Positions 1 through 55,500 of a stretch of 64,000 nt of DNA are shown piece after piece; position 1 is the stretch's first letter, and each line of letters opens with the position of its first letter. Both the position numbers and the translations under genes were made by a program. The stretch spans positions 887,374-951,373 of the forward strand of contig NW_003314282.1 in NCBI RefSeq assembly GCF_000143415.4, written 5' to 3'. Source of the DNA: Selaginella moellendorffii (Eukaryota; Plantae; Lycopodiophyta). The notes below the pieces were generated by a model. The model was not told the DNA's origin. It ran no database searches and saw only the letters and a program-made list of their open reading frames with translations.

Positions 1-170
1 TCGCGCTCGCACACTCGCGCTCGCGCTCGCATCACACTCGCGCTCCCGCTCGCATCGCGCTCCCACTCGCGATCACGCTCACTTCTCTACAGGTTTCTCG
101 TGTGCATCGGCGTCCACTCGCGCTTGCATCACACTCGCGCTCGCATCGCGCTCGTGTGCATCGGCGTCCA
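1..170. repeat. Low-complexity TCGCGC/TCGCAC tandem repeat
   Basis: Repeated tcgcgctcgc/acactcgcgc units and a duplicated ctcgtgtgcatcggcgtccact; runs off the window edge. Confidence 0.8.
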
Positions 171-1291
171 CTTCAAGACACACCCAGTTTGTAACTTCGC
201 CACCAACTCCGCCGCCCACTCCGCCACCCACACGCAGCCCACTTGGCGTCCCGGGAGATTTCAACACCACTCTCCAACTGTAAGTGGCAGAGTAGCCTTG
301 CTGCTACGATCCGCTGCACACACAGTGCACATTCGCCAGCGAGTCCGGCCTCGATTGTCACGGCCTCCATTCGGCTTCAAATGGTAAGTCTTTTAGACCA
401 AGTAGAAAATGGCATGAGGCCACATGCCATTCAGTAGCAACATTGGCATGCACCGATTGGGCTCTCGAGTGCAGTCCGGTTACAGATGGCGTGTAGCCTC
501 ACGCCATCTTAGGATGCAGCCTCAAGACATCTGATGCAGTGGTGAATGGCGTGTGGCCTCACGTTATTTCCAGCTGCTAGCTTTTCATCTGTCAGCTCTA
601 ATTGTTGTGCATTTCTAAACAGGCGAGGAATTGCGTTCTTCTTCCAGCCACTGTCAATGTGGATGCAGAGAAGGGGGAGGAGCTCACCAGTTGGACTTTC
701 GGGATGGAAGGCGAGGATCTGATGCTGTACAACACAGATGGTGGGAGAAAAGAATGCATGGGGATCCTCATCCAAGTGACAGACACTCCATGCAGTTCCA
801 TGCAAGAATATGGACTGGCACTTGTGGTAGAGACAGCGTCCGCCTTCAAGATCCACCTTGCACATCCTAGCGGCTTCCCGGAGGGGGGCAGCGGCTATGA
901 GGAATTCCTAGAGGGAGCTAGGGAGAGGTTGTCCAGGAGGCCCACAATTTCAAAGACGCTGCGGGTCTATGAAGATCACATGGAATCCACGGACCTCACC
1001 TACGGCGATGTTCAAAAACTATATTCCAACATTGAGCCGTTGAGAGTGCCTCCAGTTTGTGAAGCGAAGGGGAAGGGGGTCGATCTAGAAAATACCCCGA
1101 AGCAGAAAAGGGTGGTCAAGCTCAAGCCGATGTCCGACTCTGCTGCTCCAAAAAAGAAGCTACTCGGTGATGCCATTGCCTCGGGTTCGAACACTACACC
1201 CACCAAAAAGAAGAGCCGCAAAGAGCAGAAAGAGCAAGAAGAGGCAGCAAAAATCGTCGCAAATAATAGTACTTGTTACTATTCCAACAAA

Positions 1292-1680
1292 GTATATACA
1301 ATTGACGTGAGCCGTATCGAGATCCAAAGCAAATACAACCACAGGCTAGTATCTGATGAGTGGGTGGAGAAACTGGAGCAGAAGATGCTGGCAAGTCCAG
1401 TAACACCCGACATCGCAGACGTGATCCCCTACTACCGAACAATGAAGGGCGAGACGAGGTTTCCAGACTTGATCAATAGGAAGGTGTTGGACGATCAGAA
1501 CATCCGGTTCTATGCCGTCTCCGGGCAGCATTCTAGCTTGGCGATGCAACAGATAGTTGTGGATATTATGGTGGGCGAGGAGGTGAAGAAAGTCTTCAAG
1601 ACAAGAGTTGTCCGCCTGATAAAAGGCAACTCGCCCCTCCGATCTATCATATACATCTCCCACGCGCAGAATGTCAAGCA
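1292..1680 (+). other. ParB/sulfiredoxin-like N-terminal domain coding segment
   Basis: IDVSRI..NHRLVSDEWVEKLEQKM..FYAVSGQHSSLAMQQI..RVVRLI..IIYISHAQN follows the ParB pattern (i.i..I, R..v..L...i, y.iidGxHR..A, vpv.v, al.EN). Confidence 0.65.
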
Positions 1681-4600
1681 AGAAACGTGCTACAAATCGG
1701 GTCTGCACGAGACATTGGCACGAACACGGAAGCTCTGGGTTCAACTGAAGAAGCCACAAAAACCAGGACAAGGACGTGCACTAGCAACTAGCGCCTGGCA
1801 GGTAAGCCTCGTTGCATGTGGCATAGCATGTGGCCTCACGCCATTTCCATTGCAGGAATTCTCGAGTCTTCTCTCGAAAACACTGGGGGTCAATGACACA
1901 CTCAGCATCCATAACATTCTACTCGCGACAAAAGTTGTTTTTGACAAATGGGTAGATGTGCTGAGGAGGTACCATGACGGGGAGTTGCTAAACTCAATGG
2001 GTGTGGAGGACGGCCGGAAGCCCAATGATTTGAAGCTCAACGCCTTGCGTTTCTCGCGGTCTCTAGACGACGACGACCTTCTGACAGTGGCTAATGCTCT
2101 TTTACGTGGTGAGGTAGTCTTCAACAAGACCAAAATGACTCCCGGCCATATTGTGACATACAAGGACTTGTGCACGACTCTGAGAGCTCGTGCGCTATTG
2201 AAGGATTGGATCTTCGAGCAAGTGGCCGTGGCGAGGGTGAGCATCGACACCACGCAAGAGATGATGGAAGAGCTGGACTTGTCAAATGAAGACATCGACG
2301 AGTACGTGAAGGGGGCCCCCAAGTTCATCGATCTGCTGCGGGATGCCACGAAAAGTAAAGCTGAGAAGTTGGATCAGTATCCAAATGTCATTAAGAGGGA
2401 TGTCGACCGCCGGCTTCAGAAACAGCTCGACCCCGCAGCAGAGGCCTATCGAGAACCTTACCGGGTATACGTAAATTCGGATGAGGATCAAAGGTGGAGG
2501 AGCATCGTTTCCCGCGGAGATGAGCAGGTCAAGAACATCTTTTGTGTGATGGACTTCACAAACGAGGAGATCACTCATGCAGACGAAGTCAGCTCCATCA
2601 TTGACTTAATGGTGGGACTTGCGGAGGTGGAATCTTCAGTCCACTATATGATCTACGACTCCGAATCCTATCACAAGTTCTGGAAGGCCTTGAACGAGGT
2701 GAAGGCTCGGTTGAAAGGCAAGGAGATGCGGGAGATCCATGGGATAATGGCTAAGAAGAAGATACCGACGAATGTCCGCATCTTCACAGTCGCCCTTGTT
2801 ATTGGTCCTGCAGCAGAGTGGGACTGGAGTGACTTCCCAGCTTCGTTCAACAAAGCCGATCGAATTGATCTGAGGGAGGTCAATTTACCCGTGCCTGAGG
2901 AACTGAAGACGGCTATGGAGCTTTCGAATCCAAAGAAAGCTCCAGGTGCAGCATGGGAAATGCTCAGCTGGGTCTTCAACGCAATAGCGGGTGACTCCAA
3001 GGGCAAATGCGTTGTCGAGTACAACTGCGGCGGACTATTCTTTCGAGCCGCACTACTCAAGGGTGTCCCGTGTGTTGCGGTGACAAACTCCATTGAAGAG
3101 GTGACTTCAATGGAGCATATAATTACAGTTGCCAAAGAAAAACAGTATCTTCTCTACGAACCTGGTGAGTACGCACTTTAAGTTTAAATGTTATCTCACA
3201 AGCTCTGTATGCAGGAGCGTGGCCACCCCCAGATGCTGAAACGGCGTTAACAGCTATTGATGTTAGGCCAAGGTCACAACCTGCACAAGATAAGGTCACG
3301 TGAGGCCTCACGCCATTTTGATCATAGATCGTTGTGAATATTCAGACACGAGGACTGAAAAGCGCACTGGTGGCGCGTCGAAGAAGGACAAACAGACAAG
3401 AAATAGGAAAAAAGGAGGTACAAATTATATTTGCAATGGCGTGTGGTCTCATGCCATTCCTTGGAGGAGACACTTCTTCAAAGGCAAAACAGGCAAGCAT
3501 CAGCCAAGCTCAAACTGACAGTGGTCATAAAAAGCGAAAGCACGTTGGACAGTCGTCGGGATCAGAGGCGTTTGATTCGAAAAGGAAGAAGGGCAACGAA
3601 AAGATGATAGATAATGCCTCGCGGTTATAGCGTGTGTGCTCATGCCATTCATTGCAGATCAAGGGCTGAGTGAAAGGAGCCAGTCACCACCTCCTGACTC
3701 AGATTCTTATGGCGGACTCCCCTTCCCCAATCTCAATGGAGAGGTACAATGGATGAGGGATGCTTTTCAAGTCAGGGCCACGTTTTTCTCATCTCGTCAT
3801 CTTCGAAGGGTGCAAGAACGTGCAGAAACCATGTTAAGACAGTCGGGTGAGGATACGGTCCTAGGTCACGCACTAAAACAGGCTATGGATGTCTTGTATT
3901 TTGAGATGGAGACTCGGCCAGATGATTTTCCCAAGATGGTCCTGGAAAAACAAGCCATCCAGCCTGAGCAGCCTATGGAAGAAATGCAAGAGGGGGATGA
4001 GGAGCCAGAGAAAGATAATGAGCAGGAAGAGCAGAAGGACGAAGAGGAGGACAAAGAAGAGGAGGACGAAGAAGAGGAGGATGAAGAAGAGGAGGACGAA
4101 GAGGACTTGGATGGTCCTCACAATGGTGACGATCACAATAACGACGATGACGATGATGACGACGATGGCCAGCCTGAGGTGGCCAAAGAGCAGCGGAGGA
4201 AGGTCATACAAGACAAACCATCAGGTAAATAATAGTACATCCATTCCTAACCTTTTACCATTTCTAACATTGTCCATGTAGGTCGCAGAAGAAATGGTAA
4301 GTAGAGATTATTCAGTTGAATTAAGATACAAACTCTAGCCTTTAGTGTCGAGGAAGGATAGTGCCAAGCAAGGGTCGAAACGTATGTCCAATCCTTCAGA
4401 ATCAACAGTGCGCCCAAGTGATATCGGGCCTAGTTCCTCAATAGCAGTTGATGGTAAATACAGTATAGTCGATTCAATGTGCTAATGAGTTTGTTTTTAG
4501 TAGCACGGGAGGATACCATCTCAATCGAAGGGAGATATTTGGACATGCATATGGATCCGCCAGTGGACTCTACTTGCCTGCAAGAGTCATCAGAGCTGGT

Positions 4601-5123
4601 GGAGGCTACTATCCATATCAACGCCAAGCAAGCTGACCACGCTCCACTTGATGCTGCCCATACCACTGAGTCAATCTTGTCCATGTATCCAACTGACGGT
4701 GACCAGGCGCCATTGGACCCGCATGAGGCCGCCCCAGCCGCCGAGCCGGTCGTATCCTCATTTCCAACGTGTGCCCAATCGTCTGACTACGCGCCGTTGG
4801 AACCTCCCTACACCGCCCCTACTGCCTGTTTGGTCATGTCCACTTTGCCAACGGAGGCACCAGCTGAAATGGCGTGTGATCACACGCCATCGAAACCACC
4901 CCATGCCACTGTTGAGCCAGTTGTACCAGAGTCTACAGCTGAAATGGCATGTGCCCACACGCCATCGGATGCGATTGACCCCACATTGTAGAGGAGAGTA
5001 TTTCCACCCTTCACGTTTCCTCGACCAAAACCCTCTGAACGACCATCGGGAGCACCATTCGCTAATATTATAGATGGTAAAATTGACTTGTACCATTTTT
5101 TATGCTGACGCATTTCATTTCAG

Positions 5124-5986
5124 AGTCACGGCGAAAGTACTGTATCGTTTTTGATCTGAACGGTGTCCTTTTCTCCCATGAGCGTGGCTCGTCCTCGAAT
5201 GTCACTGCACCCTCCAAAGCCTGCGGTCGCAAGTTGGTCAAAAGAGACAGATTCACATTAATCACACGGGAGAAACTGCGGGATCTAATAATGACCATGC
5301 GACACTTAAAACAGAGGGCCGGGTTCAATTTGCAATTGGGAGTTTGGACATCCATGATGCGCCACAATGCATTAACGTTGCTACAGATGATGCACGATCA
5401 GACGCGAGTAATATTACCATTTGACTTTCTCCTAACGCAGGAGGATTGCTTGACTATGGTCCATGTGAGGGGTAGCAAGCCCATCTTCGTCAAGGCAGAG
5501 GCTGTAGTGATGAACCGGACTGCTAGGTCAAGTGAAATCCTCATCATCGATGACTCGCCGATTAAAACTGCAGCGAACACGCACACATATGCAGTGCACC
5601 CCATCTCTTGCAATATGGAAACTAGGGAGAAGAAACCGTATGTTCTGGGGGACCTTGCAAAACGGCTTGAAGCGATGGTGATAGAGAACCGGCCAGTCCA
5701 GGAGGTGGCTGCAGAAATCAACCAAATGGCAGATGGAACGGTATATCAGAAGCCATTTGATCGAACAGACACCAGTCATCATTTATGGCATGTATATTGT
5801 CTAGCCAAGCACTATCCGCATCTCCATAATCTGCTCAACCGGATGGGTTCTTCGACCACTAAACATGAGCGTGGACGTATTAGAGAAGAGATGGCATTAC
5901 TATTGGGTTTAAATCCTGATAGTGTGGAGAGTGATGAAATTCCAAGATTATTGTATAGGCGTTGGAGGCAAAAAATAACAGTCTGA
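5124..5986 (+). CDS. FCP1/NIF-like HAD-superfamily phosphatase domain (terminal exon)
   Basis: YCIVFDLNGVL (motif I, DxN variant), GVWTSMM (motif II), IFVK (motif III), ILIIDDSPIK (motif IV). Confidence 0.8.
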
Positions 5987-7121
5987 GATGGCATGTATTT
6001 ATTTAAAAATGTAACTTATTATGGCATGGGGTTCCATGCCATTGTATTAATATTAAAAGACAATTCTTTGAGAGGATTTGCATTATACTAGAAGTGTTAC
6101 AGCATGTTATTGGAAGTCTGCGAAGTTGTTTTATTAATAAGGGGAAAGTAAAGATTGAATGGGGACTTGGGCTCCACCTAGACTCAGAGCAACTGAGCCA
6201 ATATTAAAAGGATGGAAAGAAATTGGACGACGATGACAAGGAGAAGAGAGAGGTGAAACAGTGGCAGGGGGAGGAGAAGTGATTGAGTAGACATTTCCTT
6301 GTTTAAAATAAAATAGCATGTGCCTCAATGCAATTGAATTTTGTTATATTTATATACTATATAAAGGTTTGGAAACCTTATTTTACAAGTGGGATAATGA
6401 CAATTCCCACTTTAACGAAATAGAGCTTCTAAGCAAAAGATGCAAAATAATTCGTAAACTGGTAGAAGGCAACTACCTAAGACTTCTTATTGGGATAAGG
6501 AAGTTTGATATACCCTTATAAGGGATAAATTACTTATGTTGCGATATAGTAAGTCAATGTCAAAAAAGGAATGTTCATTGTCAGAGAGACCATCATTGGG
6601 ACACCCAAACACTCTAAAACACCAAAAGGGGGTATTTGGTGTCATGAGGGCAATGGATAATGCCTAAGGGAAAAAGTCCCTAGCGAATGAAGGATAGGAG
6701 GTGTTATCCAAATGTCCAAAGTTGTGGAGACGGGAGAAGTGCGTCTACCCAAATTGGACAAAGCCAAAGAGGGATTTTGGCAAGGTTAGTGATGGCCATA
6801 TAAAGACCCATAAGTAGCAACGGTGATCTCAGTGTGTGGGATTACAAGGTGAGCAAACCCAGATTGAGGAACCACTCCCTAGGCTGTCGGGTAGGTGCAT
6901 CCCTATGAATACTTGCCAAGGCATGGTAGAAAGTGCAAAGCTATCTTCCTAGTCTGGAGGAAAATAACCGAAGGAAATATATAAGGCCAAAAGGCAAGTA
7001 ATATAGGAATAGAACCGAACCATGGGAATTGACACGCATGACCAAGGGTGGTTATGCAAGTTAGGAGTGGAGAATTAAGTGGGTGCTCAAGCATGTCGTT
7101 ACTAACGACTAGAATGCCATG

Positions 7122-7481
7122 TGTCAAGACCCCTGACAAGATCAAGACTGGAAAATGCAAAAAGACAAAGAGAAAAGCTAGTGGAAACAAGAAGAGGCCT
7201 TAGACTGGCGTTGATTCAGATTGTGGAGAAATGGAACAAGGCTAACCTATATATACTATAGGTTGATGAAGCTCCACCACTCTTGGATCGAGGACGGCCT
7301 AAATATAGCTGAGGTCGAGGAGGCACCACATCATCATCAGGAATGTGGCTCGAGACTCAGGAATCGGGAAGTGTCTCGAGAGTCAGGAATAGGGAAGTGT
7401 CTTGAGAGTCAGGAATGTGGTCTGCAGGTCAGGAATCTGGCGAGAGTCAGGAATGTGGCAAGAATTGGGGGATTCCTGACA
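7122..7481 (-). repeat. 3' LTR (360 bp)
   Basis: Matches 12291-12676 apart from about a dozen transitions and one fewer 26-bp internal repeat unit. Confidence 0.95.
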
Positions 7482-10400
7482 GCACCCCCTCCTCAAGAAC
7501 GAGTGGAACGAGGATGTGAACGAGAACGAAGAGGAGGATGAGATGAGCGGCGAGGGATGGGAGATGGAAAAAAAGAATGAGGACTGGGACGAGAAGGATA
7601 GCAGCGGTGGAAGTCCTGAACAAGGTCAGAAGAATGAATCAGGTTGTCTGCAGGTTCCCAAGTGCGTTCCTCAGGTCCGTAACCTTTCCAGTCCACCAGA
7701 TAGTAGAGTTTAGACTGTGAAATCTTGGAATCAAGGATGTCCTGAACCTCGTACTCAGACCCATCCTCGAGCTGCACTGGTGGAGGCGGAGGAATGACCC
7801 GATTTGGAATAGGACTGGGAATATAAGGCTCAAGGAGAGAGGAGTGAAAAACGGGGTGAATTTGATATGAGGAGGGAAGTGCAAGGCGATAAGTCACAGG
7901 ATTAATGATGGCAGTGATAGGGAAAGGACCAAGGCGTTTGAAATTGAGTTTTGGACAGGGCCTGGTGGTGGAGATATTTCGCCTGAGGAGCCAGACTTTA
8001 TCCCCGATATTGTAAGGGGGACAATCCTGACGATGGACATTGGCAAATGTTTTATGAGATTCCTGAGCACGATGGAGGTGGAAGGAGATGGAGTTGTGGA
8101 TTTCCTGGAGGTTGGAGATAAATGTCTTAGAGCAGGGATTTGAACGAGAGGATTCAGATGGAGAAGGAAGTGAGAGATTGAATCGGGGATTTCGGCCAGA
8201 GTTCACAAAGAAGGGGGAAACTCGAAGAGAGGAGTGAACAGAGTTGTTATAGGAGAACTCAGCAAGGGGAAGGATATCAAACCAGTTATCCTGATGATAG
8301 TTGATGAAGCACCTCAAGAATTGTTCCAACGTCTGAATCATTCACTCTGACTGCCCATCAGTTTGAGGATGATATGCCGAAGAGAGGTTGGCCTTCACTC
8401 CAAGCAGCTGCAAAAACCATTGCCAGAAATGAGAGATGAACTGAGGCCCCCGATCCGAAACCACATCTGTAGGAATCCCATGAAGTCGGAAAATTTCCCT
8501 GAATACCAGTTTTGCCATGTCCTCGCCCGAAAACTCCTTGGTACATGGCAAGAAGTGCGCCATCTTTGTGAAGCGATCCACCACGACTAAAATGCTGTTG
8601 AAGCCTCAAGAACTCGGAAGATCACTCAAGAAATCCATGGAGATGGATTCCCAAGGACCTGAAGGGACCGGAAGGGAATGAAGCAAACCTGAAGGAAGGT
8701 GGCGAGGTACCTTATTCCGGGCACAAGTGTCACAGGAGGTAACAACAGCTTTGATGTAGTCGTCCATGTGAGGCCACCAAAAGTCCCATGCAACTAGCTC
8801 ATAGGTTTTCGCAATGCCAAAGTGACCAGCAGTCGGGCTATCGTGGCGCGCCATCAGGACCAACCTTCGAGCATCACCTTCAGGAACGTAAAGCTGCTCC
8901 CCACGGTACAATAAGCTATCTAAGAACTCAAACTCGTCAAATCGCCGGCAGTCGGGAGTCATTGGGTGTCCAGCCTGAAGATGGGGGAAGATGTCGCTAG
9001 CGAGATCATCAGATTGAAGATCGTTTCTGATTGCATCCATCAAGGAGGAGTCCTGAGGGGCCAGGGAAATTGCCATAACTTGAAGCCGATCAAGACCGAG
9101 GATAACTTGATCCTGTTGATCGAAGGCAGGATTACCAGGCCTGAGACTGAGATAGGAGCGCCTTGAAAGAGCATCAGGAAGGCCTTGAAACTTTCCAGGT
9201 CTGTACTTGATAACAAAGTCAAACCGACTCAGGAATTGTGCCCACCTTGTTTGACGACGGCTTAAAACTCGGGAAGTGGCAAAGTACTCGAGATTTTTGT
9301 GATCCGTCCAGACTGTTGTTTGATGGCTCGCCCCCTCCAAGAAACGGCGCCTCTCCAAAGGAATCCACGATGGCAAGGAGCTCCTTGTCATGGATTTCGT
9401 AATTGATCTCCGCAGGCTGGAATTTCCGAGAATGGAAAGCGACCGGATGAAGTTCGTGATCCGCTCCGAGTTGAGACAGCACAGCACCAATGGCAAAGTC
9501 GGAGGCGTCAGCCTTGATGAAGAAAGGTTGTGAGGAATCAGCATGGATCAAGACAGGAGCAGAACTGAAAGCCGCCTTGAGTGTGTCAAAGGCCTGCTGG
9601 GCAACAGCAGACCAAGAGAAGGGAACATCCTTGCGAGTGAGATGTGTGAGAGTAAGAACAATGTCAGAGTAGTGATCAATGAATTTGCGGTAGAAGTTGG
9701 CGAAGCCAAGGAAAACCTGAACGTCCGACATTAATTGTGGAGGCTCCCATTCGAGAATAGTCTTGACTTTGGCATGATCCATCGTGATACCCTCAGGAGT
9801 GACAAAGTACCCAAGGAACTCCATAGACTGCTGATCAAAGGAACATTTCTCAAGCTTCGCATATAGGCCGTGTTCTCGCAGCTTCGCTAGCACCTTGCGT
9901 ACATGTTCGTCATGCTCCTCCTGAGTTTTTGAGTAGATGAGGATGTCATCGAGGTAGACGATCACCATCTGATCAAGAAACTCCCGAAAGACGTTCTTCG
10001 CCATGTGTTGGAAAACTGCTGGAGCATTTGTCAAGCCAAATGGCATGACAGTGTACTCGAAGTGGCCATAGCGGGTTCGGAACGCAATCTTCCATTCATC
10101 ACCAGGCCGGATCCGGATCAGGTTGTATGCTCCACGGAGGTCGATCTTGGTGAAGAAGCAGGCACCGCCAAGGCGTTCCAACAGGTCCAAGATCAGGGGC
10201 AGCGGATAACAGTTCCAAATAGTCACCTTGTTCAAACCTCGGTAGTCGATGACTAGCCGCAAGCTCCCATCCTTCTTCTTGACAAAGAAGACAGGTGCTC
10301 CAGCCGGGGACTGCAAATGCTGAATGTAGCCCGAGGCAAGGTTCTCATCCACGTACTCTTTGAGGGCCTTAAGCTCGGACGGGGATAACCCATAGATAGG

Positions 10401-12290
10401 CCCCCATGGAGGTGACGCTCCTTTCTGTAAATCAATGGGACAATTATAAGGCCGATGAATAGGCAGTACACTAGCTTTTTTCTTGTCAAACACATCCCCA
10501 AAATCATGATACTTCTCAGGAAGACTGACAAAAGAAACATGCAAAGCAAAAAGAAAAAGAGGTTCTTCATGAAGGAGTTCTTTCATAGTGATTGTGGAGA
10601 TAGGAGGAGGCGTACGACTAAATGGAATGATGAGACGAGGATACGGTCCAGTGTAAGATGGAAGAGAGGAAAAAGAAGAGGGTGAAAACTTTATAGAGTC
10701 AAGAACAGAACCCCGATTTGAGTTTAGGGAACTTCTCCTGATTCGGACTCGATGAACAGCAGGGGAAGCCGTGGGAGAGATGAGCTGTAATTCCTTCCAA
10801 CAGATCTGAGGCTAATGTAGTTGGAACCAAGGAAGACCGAGCACCACAGAGGAGGACTTGCTGTTGATGATGTTAAAGGTGATATCGGTGACGGTGGACC
10901 CGATGTGTACTCGAACGAGCAACGTTTCCCTAAGTCCAGAAGATGGAGACACAAAATGCCCGCCGATGCCTTCAACCCTCAAATCCCGTATGGTAGGAGA
11001 AAGAGGAACGTGATGTCGGGCAGCAAAGTCCGTGTCCATGAAGCAGGAAGTTGCACCCGAGTCCAGTAACGCCAGAGCCTTGAGTCCTAATTGTCCGGTG
11101 AAAGAAAGGAGACATGGGACGTGGAAGTTGCGGGAATTGGTGGTGGCTTTGATGAAAGGTGGTGAGGAGCTTGATAAAGAAGAAAAGTGATTTTTATTCG
11201 GGGAGTCCAAACAGACAGCTCCTACTCTGTTTGGACAGGGTCATTTCCTGACTGCAATAGAGGTGGACTTTGAGGCAGAGTGAACTCGAGCAGTCGAGGA
11301 GGCTTCTTGGGACATACAACTGCTTTGTGATTAGGATCAGCACAATAGAGGCAAAGATTATGAGATATTCGACGTTGCTTCTCAGCAGGACTCAACTTCC
11401 CTCTAATGAGTCGGGGAGTACCAGAAATATCTATCGGAACCGGAGCAGTAGGTTCAGGAGTATGCCCCGAAGACTCAAGCTGGGATTCCTGAGTCTGGGA
11501 CGGAAAAACAGCGGCGCGGCAACTTTCCTGACGACGTTCAAAGAGACGATTGTCACATCGAACAGCTTTGTTGATGGCATCCAACAGGTCCTTGGGATCC
11601 TCCATGGTGAGCAACAAATCCTTGACACCGTTGTTGAGGCCGAAACGAAATTGGTCAATCAGGGCCCGCTCATCCCACTTAGTGTCCAAAGCAAGGAGTT
11701 GGAACTCTGCAGCATAGCATCGAGGCAAGACGAGACCCCTGAGAGAGACGTCTCATCTTTGTGGTAGCAGCCCGCACCCGATCCGTCTCGCCAAAACATG
11801 CTTCGAGCTTCTCTTTGAACAATTGAAGATCCATCAGCTCTGGAACCACGACCCCTTTCATGCTCTTCTCCAGAAGAGGAGAAAACCATGACAAAGCTGC
11901 ACCTTTGAGCAACGTCCCAATCGCGCCGATTTGAGACTCAGGAGTAGGGTACCGCTGATGTTGAAGTGCGAAGATCAACTCCATCTGGTTCAGGAATCCG
12001 CGAAGCTCCGAACGCTTGCCTGAAAATTTCGCCGGGAAGCTCACCTTCGGTTCAGGAACTTTGCTGGATCCTTGAGCCGAAAGTGAAGCAAGCTCCTGCT
12101 GCATGCAAAGAAGGGTCGCCTTCAGCTCGGTATTCTCATACTGGATTTTTGCAAGGATTTCAGCAAAGAAATTAGGATGGCTTGGAGACTCCATTGGCAA
12201 AAAGAAAGAAAAAAGGGGGAAAAAAAGGCAAAGGTAATCAAACAATCAAAACGAAAATCAAAAAACGAAAAAACACAATCTGAATCAAAC

Positions 12291-12676
12291 TGTCAAGACC
12301 CCTGACAAGATCAAGACTGGAAAATGCAAAAAGACAAAGAGAAAAACTAGTGGAAACAAGAAGAGGCCTTAGACTGGCATTGATTCAGATTGTGGAGAAA
12401 TGGAACAAGGCTAACCTATATATACTATAGGTTGATGAAGCTCCACCACTCTTGGATCGAGGACGGCCTAAATATAGCTAAGGTTGAGGAAGCGCCACAT
12501 CATCATCAGGAATGTGGCTCGAGACTCAGGAATCGGGAAGTGTTTCGAGAGTCAGGAATAAGGAAGTGTCTCGAGAGTCAGGAATAAGAAAGTGTCTCGA
12601 GAGTCAGGAATGTGGTCTGCAGGTCAGGAATCCGGTGAGAGTTAGGAATGTGGCAAGAATTGGGGGATTCCTGACA
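12291..12676 (-). repeat. 5' LTR (386 bp)
   Basis: TGTCA..TGACA termini; internal gagagtcaggaat repeats; TATA-like element at about 12416-12430. Confidence 0.95.
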
Positions 12677-14764
12677 CCATGGAGAGTCTAAAGCATGGGA
12701 TTGTCCATGTTAGAATATATAGTAATTGGAAAGCTTGGGAAAGGAGAGGCCTTAACAAGCTAAGGAACAGAGTTCCTTGAACGTTCCCCTAGGTAGATAA
12801 ATACTTAGTCAACCAAGTGTAAATAGTTCATAGAATGCGCAAAATCAGAGTAGCACAGCAAAAGCGTGGTCTTGAAACTTGCCATGAGGCGAGGCTATCA
12901 AGATTGGGGAAGTAGTTCCCGAGTGTTCAAAGAGAGGGGTTTTGAACGAAAGTCGATGGTTAAGGACTTTCACGCTTATGCATGAACCATGTTATAGTAG
13001 CCGAATGACTTTGCTAAGTGAGATTGGCAAGTCCGGGGGAACGAATACCCTAGTTGAAAGAGCCAACTTCAAAGGGGTGGCCCAGGGGGCCGAGCATGGA
13101 GGAGTCCATGCATGATCACAGATATGTCAAGTGAGAGGATTTGGCAGTGCGGAGGAACTAGGTTCCTAAGCTATGATCTGTAGCGCGCTTTAAGTATAAG
13201 TTGGTGCACCGGCATGGGGAGTCACGCCAGGCATCTAGGGTGATGCCATCCGTAGATGCATATACAGAGGTTGGGTTTAAGTCCCAACCCTCTAGTGCTT
13301 GGGTTCGAGTCCCAAATTACTAGGGCGTGGTGATGGTTTGGAATATGAGGACACTCATATTTCGGTGGTCATGGACTCTCAGTGAGAAGACTGGTTTGGG
13401 CACACCGCCAAGCAAGGGATGCCTCGGACTCGTGATGCACGGTTAGATTGCTTAGAGTGAAAGCTCGGCATATCTAACTTGAACACTTTTGTGCAAAAGG
13501 CACCAAGGACGTGGTGAATGAAATGGGAACACCCAGTCTCAGTTGCTATGGATCCTTGGCCGGAAGGGCTGGCTTGGGCGCACCGCCAAATGTGGGGGAT
13601 GCCCCCGGGGTCATAGTCAACAATTTAAAAGGGTCTGGAAGACATAGTTCCTATTGGTAGACCTGTTAAGGGGTCAAGATGAGATCACTAGGTGATCTTG
13701 TGGCTAAACAAAGACAAGGTCTTTGTTTGGGTTAAGGAATATGATTCCCAGTTCAAAGTGTTGATTTAAATTATTGATAATGGTGTGACTTGGTCGAGGT
13801 GACCAAGTGAGAAGGACACCTAAAGGGAAATCAATTGTGCTAATACGATGGTATAGTAAGTCCAAGAAAGTAGTCTCGGGGAGAGACCCATGGAACGGTC
13901 ACAAAGTTGAGCCATGGATGAAGCCCGTAGCAGAAATTGCTAAAGAGACCTATTAAGGGTGAGCACCCGCTGGACTTAGCAAAGTAGAGTCTTTGCCATG
14001 GAACCAAAATGATACCTCGAGAATTGAGGTAGTGATCATATGTTGCTCAGTGCAACAATAAATGGATAAAAGCAAAAGACTAGTGGCCAAGTGTGGGCCA
14101 TGGAGTTCATTAAAAGGAATCCAAATGGCAAAATTAGGCATGGAACACTAATGTGTTAGATGCTAACGGATTGTGAGAAAGGAAGTGTGCTTCCAATGAT
14201 GGATTCCCAAATGCTCAAAGTTGGCAAAGGTGAAAGCTCCAAGGGAGGGAGCGGCGAAATAGCCAAAGGATAGGGCCGTGAATAGCTTTAGCACAACTTA
14301 CGATAGCTAGAACTTGGTGCCAAAAGTGGTATAAAATAGAAAGGAGGATGATGGCGCCCTCAAGTGGGGGGCTTCTTAGGATGGGAAGTGAAGTTGCACA
14401 ATATGTGCAGTGAAAGGTGTCAAAGACACCAAAGAAATTGACTTCGAGAAGTCAAAATTAAAAGTTCCAAGGTGAATTGGCTATGTCAATAGAAGTTAGG
14501 ACTACTCGAGAATGAGTAGTGAAATTGAGTTAGAGAAGGTGTCTCTAACTGGAGCAAACCACCCCAGGTGGCCAAATGAGTCTCTATGTTGGAGAGACTA
14601 TGCCCCTTAGAGGATGGACAAGGCATGGTGAGCTTTCAGGGTCAAACCATAGACAAATATTGGCTAGGTGCCAAGGATGGAAATGGTAATACCTGCGGAT
14701 GTTACTTTATAAAAGGGTTTACCGTTCGATAAGGACATCAAACTTCGTCTATGGGTGGTGGAGT

Positions 14765-16599
14765 TGTGAAACACAAATCCCTAAGCCCCAAAGTGGAGCC
14801 GAAAGGGTGCCACGTGGTAGTGGCTAAAGCAAAAGCGTAACATGTTTGGACTAAAAGGCTCCGACTTGAAAGGTTGAGAGCGGGAGTGGAACTCCCAACG
14901 GAGTGCTCAAGGAACGAGCATGAAGCGAGCAATAAGCGAGGCTCCAAAAAGGGACCTAAAAGGACTAACACATGACACATGGAAGTGTCCGAGATGGAGT
15001 CCGAGATGGACCCGAGTTGGAGTCCGAGGTGGAGTCTAAGATGGAGTCCGAGATGGACCCGAGTTGGAGACCGAGATGGATCGAGATGGAGTCTGAGATG
15101 GAGTCCGAGATGGACCAAGACGGAGACCAAGATGGAGTCCGAGATGGAGTCCGAGATGGACCCGAGTTGGAGTCCGAGGTGGAGTCTAAGATGGACTCCG
15201 AGATGGACCCGAGTTGGAGACCGAGATGGATCGAGATGGAGTCTGAGATGGAGTCCGAGATGGACCGAGACGGAGACCAAGATGGAGTCCGAGATGGAGT
15301 CCGAGATGGACCGAGATGGAGTCCGAGATGGACCGAGACGAAGTCCGAGATAGAATCTAAGGTGGACCGAGACAGAGTTCGAGATGGAGTTCGAGATGGA
15401 GTCCGAGATGAAATCTGAGATGGAGTCCGAGGTCGACACCGACACCGGGACCAAGACCGAGACCGAGATCAGGACCGAGACCGAGACCGAGATCAGGACC
15501 GAGACCGAGGCCGAGGCCGAGGCCAAGACCGAGCCCAAGCCCGAGTCCAAGTCCGAGCCCGAGCCCGAATCCAAGTCCAAGTCCGAGTCTGAGTCCAAGT
15601 CCGAGTTCGAGTCTGAGAGGGTGAAAGCCCAAAGCGTTCGTCTCCCAGACCCTGGGGGTTTGGTGAGCTCCAAAAGTATAGTAAGGGGGAGGACTGTAGT
15701 GGAGCCAGTTTGGCCAGGAAAGGCCAGTTTGGCCCAGGAAGCCAGACCTAGTGTTGGGTGATGAATTGACCACTAGGAAGTCCAAGACTAAAGTGAATAC
15801 AGACCGACAAGCGGGGTAGCTTGCTGAAGTGTTCAAGAGCCGGCTCTAATTCCCCCGGGAGATCGTCTGGCCGATGCTCCCAGTCCAAGTGTGGGTGGCA
15901 CTACCTACTTGGATACCTAGCATGGCTCAATGGAACCTTGCTCTAAGCCCATGGCTAGAGCACCTAAAGGCGAAAGGCGGGGAGAGTACCCATGAGGCCC
16001 GCGGTGTTCCGAAATGTTGTCCCAAAGTCCCAAACTATGGAAAGGAAGAGGAGTAGCCCTTTGGTGTGGTGACCAAAGACACAATCACACAGGAAGGAAG
16101 TCCTAGAGGACAGTGGGACTTAGTGGCCGGGCCCATGGGCCTTGATCCAGTGGCAGTGTTGGCGAACTCGACCAAGGAAAGAAAGGGACTTGGTGGGGAC
16201 TGGAACGGAGATATTGGGGAAGGCTATTCCCTGTGTCTGTGGGCATCCTAAGGATGCTAAGGAGTGGATCTAGGATGACCACTCATGGACGAATAGCCCA
16301 GTCCTAAAGAGACGGGATTGCAATGCAGGTGGTGTTAGACCACCGATGTGACCAAGGTGAATGGGCATGGCCTGGCGTAACAGGCAGATATGTCAATGGT
16401 ACCTTGGGTGTCGGTCATGGGATCGGACATGTGGAGCACTAAGACCAAGTGCAAAGGTTGAGTGGCGAGGATGCCATTCTTGGGGCTAACAAGCCCAAGT
16501 TTGGAATAGGACTTATGGAGGTTGTGAGTGAGACTCTTCCAAGTGGTCGAAGGTGTGGCTAAGTGACTAAAGTAGAATGGAAAAATTTAGTCGATTACA
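14765..16599 (+). mobile_element. Long (~1.8 kb) LTR flanked by a PPT upstream and a tRNA-iMet PBS downstream
   Basis: TGTGA start after a purine-rich tract; TTACA end followed by TGGTATCAGAGC (16603-16614). Confidence 0.65.
14989..15615. repeat. 6-bp-periodic minisatellite (CCGAGA/TGGAGT units with higher-order duplication) inside the LTR
   Basis: Direct inspection; explains the spurious ORFs in several frames. Confidence 0.95.
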
Positions 16600-17169
16600 A
16601 CTTGGTATCAGAGCTGTTCTTTAGTTTGACTTTTATTGGTGCTCAAGTATATCACCACTAGCGTTGGCATCGGAAGATCCGAGGAGTGGGCCTATCCTCG
16701 AGGAGTAGCAGGTCGGGAAGACAAGGAGGGGCATAGGGGGTTCCAAATGTATAGTAGAGATAGTGGTTGAAATGCATGTCCAACCACCTGAGACATTAGT
16801 TTGGCTCCCACTGAGCTGTGTCACTCTTTGTTCTGCATCTGGTTTTGGTTTAAGCCCAAACTCCATGTTACTCTAGTCAATGGGGTACCCTCCTCCTCGC
16901 GTTAGGCCACTGGTATGCCAAAATTGTGCCACACTCCATCTAACACCGTTTTGCATGTAGATGCTAGATACGGGGAGCTGAATACGGGGGGCTGGTGCTC
17001 TTGGGATTGTACTGGACCCTTGTTTCATAGTGCAATGGGCTTGGAATTCAACCCTAAATTCAGATGTGCTACATCATTGGTCACACTACTCACATTGCTA
17101 ATCTCTTGGATTGTTTGGGGAAAAATCATTAATTCACTAAGCTAAATCTTGTTTTTGGGTATTGGCCAG

Positions 17170-19905: not shown

Positions 19906-20716
19906 TAGTTAAATTTCTAAAATTATTAAAGTTGTTGAATTATTTTAAACTAAATTACTATAATCCTTTTTTTCAATTTGATTAGCTTGGGTATTTTATA
20001 TGTAAAATATAAAAATCTTTTCAGCCTCTTATTAAGTCTTTAATATAGTGCAATATTATAGTTGTATTGTTAGTTTAAAGATTGAAGAAATTCTCCACTT
20101 AATATATTAGTAAAATTCAAAAAGTTATAAAATAATTTTTATTCTGTATTCAGAAACAGAACCATGTCATGATACAGCATTCTATCAAAAACCAGTTGAG
20201 CACCCACAGTCGAGCACATAGTCTTTTTTGGAGAGAGTGCCTCAACTTTAATAATCCACAATAGGAGGATGGAGTTCTAGATCTTTGGAGCTTACAATAT
20301 TGAGCGTTGTTGTGGTTTGGCAAGAATGTCTCTTGAAAGGCTTCTAGAGAAGGGCCTCAATCCTCCTCTGGGGCTTGCTTTTCATTTGTGAATTCAAGTC
20401 TCCATCCAAACCTATTTTACGAGGTGATTCTTTCAAATGTGAGAGTTTCAAGAGGTATGTTTGCAATGTTTTTGGCAATGTTAGCCTTGGCTTGTTTCCA
20501 TTCTATGACACCAAGCTTAGCATTAATGTTTGCATCCAAGACTTTGGGTCGAGGCTCACTCTAGATGAAAAAGTGGATGAGATGGTGAATGCTTCTCACA
20601 CGACTGGCTTTTTCAACAAGGACGGTGCTTGAAGTACATTAGAATCACAGCCGCAAAGTCAAATGAACATGATCCATTTGATCGGAAAATAGGTTTGGGT
20701 TGTGAATTCACACAGA

Positions 20717-21879
20717 ATGCACAGCAAGCCCAAGAGGAGGCCATCCAAGCTCGAGATCCTTCTCCAGGAGCCACTCCTGCAGGACCACGATGAGGAATCG
20801 GCGATGCCCACCATCTCAAATTGTGGTAAGCTCCGAAGATCCAGGAGCGCTCCCTCCTCCGACTGTGGAGCGATGAAGATGAGGCCCAAGAACATCTCCC
20901 CAGCGCCCGCGTTTGGAATGACCACCAAATCCTACTCTCCAGGCAAGACCGCAGCTCTCATTCTCGCGCTCTACCTCGCCATTGGAATCCTCTGCTTCGT
21001 CCACGTCAGGGACGAGCTCCATGGAACCAAGACCCTGAGCTTCGTCGACGCCTTGTACTTTTGCGTGGTCACCATGACCACCGTCGGCTATGGCGACTTG
21101 GTTCCAGCCACAGCGACGGCCAAGCTCATGACGTGCCTGTTCGTCTTCGTGGGCTTCGCGATCTTTGGATTGCTGCTCGGCAACGCTGCAAACTATCTGG
21201 TGGAGAAGCAGGAGAGGCTGCTGGAGAGAGCGATCGAGAAAAGAGAGAAGTACCTCCATCACAAGAACACCGAGAGCGATGCAAGGATCCGGAGAGTTCA
21301 CTGCAAGGTGGCGGTGGCGGCGGGGCTGGTTCTGGTGCTGTTTGGAGCCGGGATCTCGGTGTTGGTGAAGCTGGAGGGGATGAGCTTCCTGGATGCGTTC
21401 TACTGCGTGACCGTGACGGTGACGACGCTGGGCTATGGAGATCGCAGCTTCACGAGCGCCGGCGGGAGGATCTTTGCGGTGGTGTGGATCTTGATGAGCA
21501 CGGTTTGTGTTGCGCAGTTCGTCCTCTACATCGCGGAGCTTGTCACGGAGGGAAGGCAGCATTCGCTCACCAAGTGGATTCTCTCCAGGAAGATCACTTA
21601 CTCGGATTTCGAGGCGGCGGATCTGGACGACGATGGAGCTCTCAGGTGGGCTGTCTTATTTCGAAGCTTTCCAGCGTTTGCTAGTAAGAACGACTCGTTT
21701 GATCTTGGTGTTCTTTGTTTTGCAGCCTCACCGAGTATATGGTGTATAAGCTCAAAGAGATGGGCAAGCTCGAGAAAGAGGACTTAGAGGCGATTGTGAG
21801 ACAATTCCAAGAGCTTGATGTGGATAGATCTGGAACTATATCTCTACAAGACATCAACTTAGCACAGTTTGGTAGGTAG
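20717..21879 (+). CDS. TPK: Two-pore (tandem-pore) Ca2+-regulated K+ channel, TPK/KCO family; exons 20717-21645 and 21726-21879
   Basis: Two TTxGYGD pore loops, RSRSAP 14-3-3 motif, two EF-hands (DLDDDGAL, DVDRSGTI); a GT-AG intron restores the YKLKEMGK C-terminus. Confidence 0.95.
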
Positions 21880-54537: not shown

Positions 54538-55500
54538 TGTGTAAGGAACCAACTCCTCAAAGTGTTGAAAGCTAAAGGATCCTTAAAAGCACAACCAAAA
54601 TGATAAAAAGTTCATCGAATGAGACTGGGTCCGGGTTCGAGCCCAAGACCGACTCTAAGATTGAGTTTGAGACCGAGTCCGAGATTGAGTCCAAGACTGA
54701 CTTTGAGTCCAAGTTCGAGACCGAGTCCGAGATTGAATTCGAGACCAAGTCTGAGATCCGATATCAAGTCTGAGACCAAGTCCGAGATCGAGTCCGAGAC
54801 CGAGTCCGAAGTTGAGTTCGAAATCAAGTCTGAGATCAAGTCCAAGACCGAGTCCGAATACTAATACAAGTTATGGGGTGAAAGCCCAAAGCATGTGTCT
54901 CCCGAGGGGGGCTGCAGGAGGTTCCAAAAGTATAGTAGGGATAGTGAGGTCTAGAAACCAGTCTTGAAGGAACTCTCTAGTGGTGCTTCCAAATTGACTA
55001 GAGGTTGAGATTGGGGCTAAAGGGCCTTGGATGGGAGTGAACATGGACTCGGGTGGTGTTGGAGGGGCCACCCAAGGAAATGCTCAAGAGCAACTCCCAC
55101 TCCCAGAAGGGAAATTGATTGTGGTGCTCCCGGCTCATGTGAAGTGGTGCCCCACTTGAGTACCTTGCAGCTCATAGGCCCTCGCCCTTCCTAGGGGCTT
55201 AGGCTTTCTTTTCGGGATGGAAGTGGGGGGGTAGAGGTACCCATATTGGGCCATTAGGCCATGGTGTTTTGCCCTAGCGTCCTAAAGCAAGTGTTGCACC
55301 CAAGGCTTAGGATTTAAAGAGTCCCATGATCAAGTCTTGTTGTATCAAGGGATGTTAGAAACCTAGAGGTTTGGTGTGCTTAGCTGCTTGTGCCTGTGGG
55401 GAGTGTAGTTGAACCTTAAGTCTAGTCTAACCCGGGGAGGGGGATTGGGGGAATCTGTGGATGAATGGCTAACACTTCGTTGCTCGTGCAGTGAGTAGCT
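54538..55500. mobile_element. Decayed LTR-like segment with CCGAGT/CCGAGA minisatellite (54620-54860)
   Basis: Same minisatellite and gggtgaaagcccaaagc..ccaaaagtatagta block as the LTR at 14765. Confidence 0.55.

Follow-up and report, generated by a model that had tools for sequence, protein, structure and literature searches.

The 64,000-nucleotide window analysed here (Selaginella moellendorffii, contig NW_003314282.1, positions 887,374 to 951,373 of the forward strand) opens with a predicted spliced gene whose product combines a ParB/Srx-type fold with a methyltransferase-like and an FCP1-like domain, and which holds, in and just beyond it, eleven copies of a 22-bp palindrome. A preliminary description of this DNA had drawn attention to the palindromes and the ParB-like domain, and had read them as a possible ParB/parS-like unit derived from a mobile element or virus. 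Its observations are partly confirmed and its interpretation partly supported by our analysis; the methyltransferase-like and FCP1-like domains it had missed. The predicted protein runs from an N-terminal domain through the ParB fold, a helical region, the methyltransferase-like domain and an acidic, low-complexity linker to the FCP1-like domain. The parts of the locus are as follows.

1..316, 5′ flank containing short tandem repeats of TCGCGC type; a portion of this flank continues into different sequence in other contigs
381..5986, plus strand, predicted spliced gene of 14 exons and 1,619 codons (hand-built model; the start at 381 is a guess)
409..430, palindrome 1, exact, in predicted intron 384-437
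486..507, palindrome 2, exact, in predicted intron 469-512
546..567, palindrome 3, two mismatches, in predicted intron 542-622
1289..1690, plus strand, ParB/Srx-fold domain from the predicted structure, with GQHS at the Box II position (1523-1534)
1823..1844, palindrome 4, one mismatch, in intron 1802-1855, the sole intron with homologue backing
1856..2452, plus strand, conserved helical region that aligns with homologues, candidate DNA-reading domain
2453..3164, plus strand, degenerate beta-class N4/N6 DNA-methyltransferase-like domain, from the alignment of members
3295..3316, palindrome 5, three mismatches, its first two bases forming the predicted GT donor of intron 3295-3345
3436..3457, palindrome 6, exact, in predicted intron 3418-3492
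3627..3648, palindrome 7, one mismatch, in predicted GC-AG intron 3593-3657
4869..4890, palindrome 8, exact, in a predicted coding exon, within a 75-nt duplication shared with palindrome 9
4944..4965, palindrome 9, exact, in predicted intron 4923-4991 (picked to remove an in-frame stop; otherwise exonic)
5138..5584, plus strand, NIF/FCP1-like HAD (haloacid dehalogenase) domain, PF03031 at E 5.4e-6 and 26.6 bits (cut-off 21.8)
6021..6042, palindrome 10, exact, in the 3′ flank
6313..6334, palindrome 11, weak with three mismatches, in the 3′ flank

The palindromes had been reported as ten copies of ATGGCRTG-N6-CAYGCCAT and a weak eleventh. When the window was scanned with this pattern, against an expectation from 100 shuffles, a copy was found at all eleven coordinates, although only six are exact (409, 486, 3436, 4869, 4944 and 6021; expected 0.00) and nine lie within two mismatches (546, 1823 and 3627 being added; expected 0.09, largest shuffle count 1). 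The palindromes at 3295 and 6313 have three mismatches each and are not singled out by the pattern alone, because three further matches of that quality lie outside the gene, at 9370, 13209 and 20164. A 22-bp matrix built from the eleven sites, and therefore circular, ranks them 1 to 11 with scores of 34.7 to 18.9, with 3295 and 6313 in 10th and 11th place at 24.9 and 18.9, and the next place in the window scores 12.4. All eleven lie within 409-6334, and the nine closer matches start between 409 and 6021; for 11 uniformly placed sites, confinement to 5.9 of 64 kb has a P of 4.7e-10. The 57.6 kb of the window outside this interval contain no site at two or fewer mismatches. The sites are dispersed and not tandem, and since the sequences flanking them are unrelated to each other there is no shared mini-element around them; palindromes 8 and 9 (4869 and 4944) come from the 75-nt local duplication. 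The motif was also seen in 62 viral stretches, each time single and unclustered, and a search of Rfam gave no family (one chance match, E 0.49). A contig of one other sequencing run, X4, joins 3317, the end of palindrome 5, to 6405, the shorter side being 22 letters long; this junction may mark an additional site close to the 3′ terminus of a different copy.

The exon model was built by hand from the sequence and is not unique. It contains 13 introns (12 GT-AG and one GC-AG) of 44-81 nt and is open to the stop codon at 5984-5986; with 12 introns one internal stop remains, and the thirteenth (4923-4991) was chosen to remove it. The model places eight palindromes in introns, one per intron in eight of the 13, a single palindrome in an exon and the other two 3′ of the stop codon, in agreement with the preliminary description, which had put them in introns, in one coding exon and downstream of the gene. 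The palindromes avoid the long coding blocks, and this does not depend on the exon model: five such blocks account for 74% of the span but contain two of the eleven sites (P 1.6e-4). The open reading frame (ORF) 602-3181 is not a single exon, since it reads through the 54-nt intron 1802-1855, which is missing from homologues. A Selaginella RefSeq paralogue joins WQ to EF exactly at this intron, and the unspliced gene calls of several relatives stop or lose similarity right after the Val at the same position. Because the position is common to the Selaginella paralogue and several relatives, the gene family is old. The runs listed as containing the gene include none of RNA, and contigs from other runs pass unspliced across the predicted introns and are therefore uninformative on splicing. 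An introner-like origin of the introns was considered and rejected, as they share the 22-mer only and the 1802 position is common to distant relatives.

The sequence of the palindromes is informative about what might read them. Over the 22 half-sites the consensus is ATGGCRTGWGG, with T or A at position 9 in 19 of 22, G at position 10 in 19 of 22 and G at position 11 in 14 of 22. This preference at positions 9-11 means that the six-base spacer is not free, as had been supposed, and that the site is a near-perfect 22-bp palindrome. The C at position 5 is invariant (22/22), whereas the next base, its CpG partner, is A in 10 of 22 half-sites (Fisher P 5e-4), an asymmetry that equal CpG decay on both strands would not leave behind. 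The arms vary independently, and in two of the eleven sites there is an A.C mispair at the CpG-partner position. Such a pattern favours a protein reading double-stranded DNA over a hairpin. Since ParB-family proteins are known readers of palindromes, each half-site here departs independently from one consensus, and the sites are confined to the gene, we infer that the ParB-fold protein itself is the putative reader.

Support for the fold comes from a predicted structure. An AlphaFold model made from 21 aligned sequences reached a predicted local distance difference test score (pLDDT) of 73 and a predicted template-modelling score (pTM) of 0.51; single-sequence prediction gave a pLDDT of 31. 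Among the matches listed by Foldseek against the PDB, 28 of 32 are to ParB, Noc, KorB, PadC, sulfiredoxin or their kin (best E 0.010), counting the SbnI and Atu1540 structures, which we take to be of ParB/Srx type. Realignment with VIA, which is a re-examination of Foldseek's list and not an independent search, gave, against Myxococcus ParB (7bnr), Z 8.2 and a root-mean-square deviation (rmsd) of 2.9 Å across 86 residues; ParB/Srx-type structures fill the first 25 rows, and Z has fallen to 4.3 where the first unrelated structure appears. In BFVD, two of the three hits at E ≤ 0.001 are named ParB-like. Sequence searches of the PDB, Pfam, PHROGs and NCBIfam returned no ParB match. A ParB/Srx fold is thus supported by the model, and the earlier assignment of a ParB-like domain followed by a helical region is upheld.

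Beta-class N4/N6 methyltransferases are characterised by a catalytic (D/N/S)PP(Y/F) motif and a C-terminal FxGxG that binds S-adenosylmethionine (SAM). In all five family members compared the catalytic motif is reduced to its Asp, followed by FTN, LTH, LRR, SAN or ATT, and the SAM motif takes the form D/E-x-x-x-GG in the four of five members that extend to that position (E-x-x-x-GG in the window copy). A match to PF01555 was obtained for the Riccia member only (one of five; E 1.4e-4), and the Riccia gene model matches N6_N4_Mtase at E 5.8e-4, below the curated cut-off. The window's own domain had no methyltransferase match, and a PDB search with the alignment of this domain found no methyltransferase; Atlas leads for it scored 0.79-0.86. 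On these transitive and weak matches the domain is likely to be methyltransferase-derived, and canonical amino-methyltransferase activity is unlikely. Active FCP1/SCP enzymes carry the motif DxDx(T/V), and the corresponding position of the FCP1-like domain (in the 5087-5986 translation) reads DLNGV. The Riccia gene model also matches NIF above the cut-off (E 1.9e-5); the spikemoss-window and Riccia FCP1-like domains gave no significant alignment to each other (E 0.67).

Relatives were retrieved by an exhaustive HMMER search, which gave 14 hits, two of them (P0002 and P0006) dropped as repeat artefacts; word-index protein searches retrieved none. Those with names belong to Selaginella (SELMODRAFT_409495 and SELMODRAFT_416075), Calypogeia fissa (CAM6105388.1) and Riccia sorocarpa (R1sor_016316, R1sor_023988 and R1sor_025532); the others are fragments, and identity to the relatives is 19-29%. 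In one Riccia gene model, 1,064 residues long, the domains follow each other as in the predicted spikemoss gene. The three Riccia paralogues each lie on a separate scaffold, two of them being identical at 151 of 162 positions in the ParB domain, and a tree of 11 ParB domains resolves the Riccia clade only. By Atlas language-model features, the nearest named family to residues 225-520 is DUF3723 (0.97; 200 of 256 features), a conserved cargo gene of fungal Starship elements with a function given as unknown in the accessible part of its description (bioRxiv 10.1101/2021.12.13.472469). Pfam searches gave no match to PF12520 (DUF3723), so that this proximity is one of features, with homology unproven. 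It is conceivable that Starship DUF3723 may itself be a ParB-fold accessory protein; a literature search for DUF3723 together with ParB found no paper. The features of the same region (window 1259-2161, P0001 residues 225-520) also lie near a sponge-containing cluster (0.95). Among metagenome, viral and prokaryote contigs and phage and plasmid records there was no related locus, the lone candidate from the contig search being a glycosyltransferase and spurious.

Several of these properties, namely the low identity among relatives, the young Riccia paralogues and the proximity to DUF3723, suggest a family that behaves like mobile DNA. Long contig pieces from four to five other runs match the gene at ~99% identity, and in one run whose contigs add up to only 2.8 million letters it is represented over its whole length, again at ~99% identity. 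Furthermore, 14 small runs, all from one sample, contain 0.66 of the gene's words apiece and a fifteenth contains none, although the runs were selected for holding the gene and their depth is not a measure of copy number. We take these data as a hint of several near-identical copies, from which no copy number is derived. The 5′ flank is possibly subterminal to an element that ends beyond the window. Directly 3′ of the gene lies a decayed repeat (6335-7116 and 12677-14700) that is poor in CpG and CHG (observed/expected 0.46 and 0.49); its identity to other runs is 87-93%, where the gene has 99%, and it may be part of the same element or an older neighbour. Its two parts are separated by a Ty3-type long terminal repeat (LTR) retrotransposon on the minus strand at 7122-12679, whose LTRs (7122-7484 and 12291-12679) are 90% identical. 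Contigs of two runs join 7116 to 12677, from which it follows that other copies of the flank are without this Ty3 element. A Helitron 3′ end was looked for by eye and rejected: there is a small hairpin at about 6386-6410, with no fitting terminus after it.

Our preferred explanation, to which we would assign a probability of about 0.5, is that a multi-copy DNA mobile element carries this as an accessory gene, and that its protein binds the element's own palindromes and counters silencing. The ParB-fold protein would bind, as a dimer, to the 22-bp palindromes that lie in the introns and flanks of its gene. Sites would have been gained where they carry no coding cost, at about one per intron, so that the gene body would become covered with loading points. 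The output would be occupancy, with recruitment by the methyltransferase-like and FCP1-like domains, rather than canonical DNA amino-methylation or CTP-gated sliding; the FCP1-like domain might recruit the tail of RNA polymerase II. By analogy with VANC and with algal ParB accessory genes (see below), the purpose could be anti-silencing or self-regulation that keeps the element transcribable. The mobile-element origin suggested in the preliminary description is in our view likely, even though the transposase, element ends and target-site duplication that would complete the picture were not found; for a role in segregation, which it also mentioned, there is no support.

A number of points weigh against this explanation. 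Neither a transposase nor a terminal repeat nor a target-site duplication was found in the window, whose first base lies 380 bases upstream of the predicted start; when the 3′ flank was scanned with Pfam in six frames, no family turned up in any of 12 frames. The co-occurrence of motif and protein is known from one locus. The Foldseek search of the PDB gave no match at E ≤ 0.001, a Z near 8 can be obtained from a common structural arrangement, and where alignments to ParB and Noc run on into the helical region the rmsd rises to about 13-15 Å, so that a helix-turn-helix (HTH) is not established. The CpG/CHG ratios are 0.74/0.92 in the gene as opposed to 0.46/0.49 in the 3′ flank, but the higher values are not evidence of protection, because two young Ty3 elements in the window are equally high (0.68/1.09 and 0.82/0.83). 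Finally, one point in favour calls for caution: of 14 listed differences from the sequence of other runs, all in the first coding exons, 10 change an amino acid, as a drifting copy would show when selection does not act on any single copy, but these 14 were picked by the tool, are few among several hundred, and could in part reflect misassembly or divergence between haplotypes.

A more elaborate account would have an old lycophyte and liverwort mobile-element family whose ParB-fold proteins load at intronic parS-like palindromes, spread by means of a rebuilt nucleotide site and keep the element transcribed through a pseudo-methyltransferase and a polymerase-tail-binding FCP1-like domain. Land plants would then have another sequence-specific anti-silencing system, independent of VANC and much older. 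Taken as a whole, we think this unlikely. It is improbable, too, that we are dealing with a domesticated host gene, no longer mobile, which regulates itself through operator-like sites in its own introns. The frame that closes unbroken over 13 introns, the 1802 intron position held in common with the Selaginella paralogue and several relatives, and the absence of a nearby transposase would all suit such a gene, whereas the preponderance of amino-acid-changing private differences (10/14), the young Riccia paralogues, the hints of several near-identical copies and the repeats on both sides of the gene point the other way.

The sites might instead be read by another protein, such as the element's transposase or a host factor, or might be what is left of a tiny dispersed repeat that has no connection with the ParB-fold protein. 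That the evidence comes from a single locus, and that 4869 and 4944 go back to a local duplication, would be compatible with this. Transposase sites usually gather at element ends, however, and the one-per-intron placement seen here is unlike that arrangement; together with the unrelated site flanks and the lack of any site at two or fewer mismatches in the remaining 57.6 kb, this makes such a reader or repeat quite improbable.

A true ParB/parS-type CTP clamp, which would load at the palindromes, close on CTP and slide along the element, is decidedly doubtful. The top structural matches (ParB, Noc, PadC and KorB; Z 6.2-8.2) do rank above sulfiredoxin and SerK (Z 3.9-5.2), and a Gln, a His, two Arg and an Asn are invariant in all ten aligned members and could be compatible with a rebuilt nucleotide site. 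Box II, however, is GQHS in 15 and GQHT in two of 17 family sequences (near-duplicates included), and the arginine of GxxR is present in 0/17. This arginine is required for nucleoside triphosphate (NTP) binding, and mutating it eliminated binding in each of 11 ParB-fold proteins examined, as described in the accessible part of PMC12704722; with it missing from all 17, a canonical CTP clamp of the kind invoked in the preliminary description is not supported. The LG-R/K-GL ParA-binding motif is likewise absent from the translation of the 602-3181 ORF. Moreover, a ParB fold does not imply a clamp, because a phage ParB activator functions without its NTP residues (PMC13229309, accessible part).

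Least probable is that the palindromes act as pre-mRNA hairpins tuning splicing or intron retention: eight of eleven do lie in predicted 44-81-nt introns and several fold as hairpins, but folding z-scores in the seven stretches tried run from +0.65 to -2.8 (with the best-supported intron, 1802, at +0.65), sequence is conserved beyond pairing, the arms mispair (A.C) in 2/11, the distance to the modelled acceptor ranges over 5-55 nt and two sites lie past the stop codon.

An accessory gene that binds its own mobile element has precedents, which we compare here on the basis of the accessible parts of the publications; for the two algal genes the likeness is one of description and not of sequence comparison. 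The Ectocarpus transposon Sola1-1_Ec32 has an accessory gene with a ParB-like and an N4C/N6A methyltransferase domain, proposed to bind and modify its own transposon (PMC12477816). The spikemoss gene is similar in that a eukaryotic ParB-like domain is joined to a domain probably derived from an amino-methyltransferase, but differs in having lost the catalytic motif, in the added FCP1-like domain, in its precise palindrome in its own introns and in having no transposase in view. Plavaka accessory gene 3 (PAG3), from Bostrychia and other red algae, encodes a ParB-like N-terminus and a putative 2-oxoglutarate (2OG) oxygenase; tandem arrays of inverted repeats adjoin the gene, and self-binding has been proposed (bioRxiv 10.1101/2025.02.11.637652). 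An N-terminal ParB-like domain, inverted repeats at the gene and a hypothesis of self-binding are thus common to both, and the best HHpred hit of PAG3, 7BNR, is also the top VIA hit of the spikemoss protein. In place of the 2OG oxygenase and tandem arrays of PAG3, however, the spikemoss locus has single sites, one per intron, and it is found in a land plant. VANC, the anti-silencing protein of Arabidopsis VANDAL elements, for which binding and demethylation have been shown (PMC5735166; PMC10398659), has motifs that concentrate in the introns and terminal non-coding regions of these elements (PMC5735166). In both systems the motifs lie in non-coding parts of the protein's own element (for the spikemoss, according to the exon model), but VANC motifs are short, asymmetric and tandem, no ParB fold is reported for VANC in the accessible text, and binding by the spikemoss protein is predicted.

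With bacterial ParB/parS, Noc/NBS and KorB/OB the spikemoss locus shares a (here predicted) N-terminal ParB/Srx fold followed by a helical region, and palindromes in or near the gene; it departs from them in the absence of the Box II arginine and of the ParA-binding motif, in being spliced and in its extra enzyme-like domains. Marchantia DN4MT1 is an active host N4-methylcytosine (4mC) methyltransferase that keeps TSPPY (bioRxiv 10.1101/2021.02.12.428880). It resembles the present family in being a bryophyte gene with a prokaryote-type beta-class methyltransferase domain, but the spikemoss family has lost the motif, and the word ParB occurs nowhere in the accessible DN4MT1 text. In the part of PMC4738411 that is accessible, ParB-type HTH fusions are mentioned for chlorophytes and chytrids only, and the text of bioRxiv 10.64898/2026.08.24.746577 does not contain the word ParB. 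The preliminary description knew of no such system in plants. Our literature search likewise found no land-plant ParB accessory gene, although Iyer 2011, the green-algal source of PMC12477816, lay outside the search and may describe plant members; genes of this kind have, however, been published for red and brown algae. The kind has therefore already been proposed, as a hypothesis, for algae, and what is new here is a possibly intact land-plant member, sites at one per intron, the loss of the methyltransferase motif and the presence of an additional FCP1-like domain.

Two algal genome papers of 2025 propose, in their accessible parts, that ParB-like accessory proteins bind and mark their own transposons, and the spikemoss locus makes this idea directly testable. 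It offers a precise candidate site (ATGGCRTGWGG, with eleven natural variants) and a candidate reader in a sequenced land plant. According to the available text of one of the 2025 papers, VANDAL is the sole transposon for which binding and modification of its own sequence are known. If our explanation is correct, the spikemoss element would add a second system, built on a bacterial fold. An anti-silencing protein that is specific for a 22-bp site might, in addition, serve as a tool for epigenome editing. Should the protein not bind, the locus would be a curiosity of one repeat family.

Further features of the window lie downstream. At 14700-16613 and 54620-54946 there is a high-copy repeat with long GAGACCGAG-type tandem arrays and a TTACA end, followed by a primer site that is presumably of tRNA-Met type; the repeat is likely to be the LTR of another retrotransposon family. 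A two-pore potassium-channel-like ORF at 20693-21787 was recognised by eye from its GYG pore motifs. In the bins of this potassium-channel gene (20376-21699) depth was 0-0.6 in all four runs, in which the ParB-fold gene is covered, an observation that was not counted as evidence, since neither depth nor an uncovered part measures copy number. A neighbouring kiwellin belongs to a cluster that bears the name Selaginella moellendorffii. The region 22500-64000 consists of segmental duplications that hold three kiwellin genes (23053, 32460 and 62877), repeated MADS-like and other ORFs, and nested Ty3 remains.

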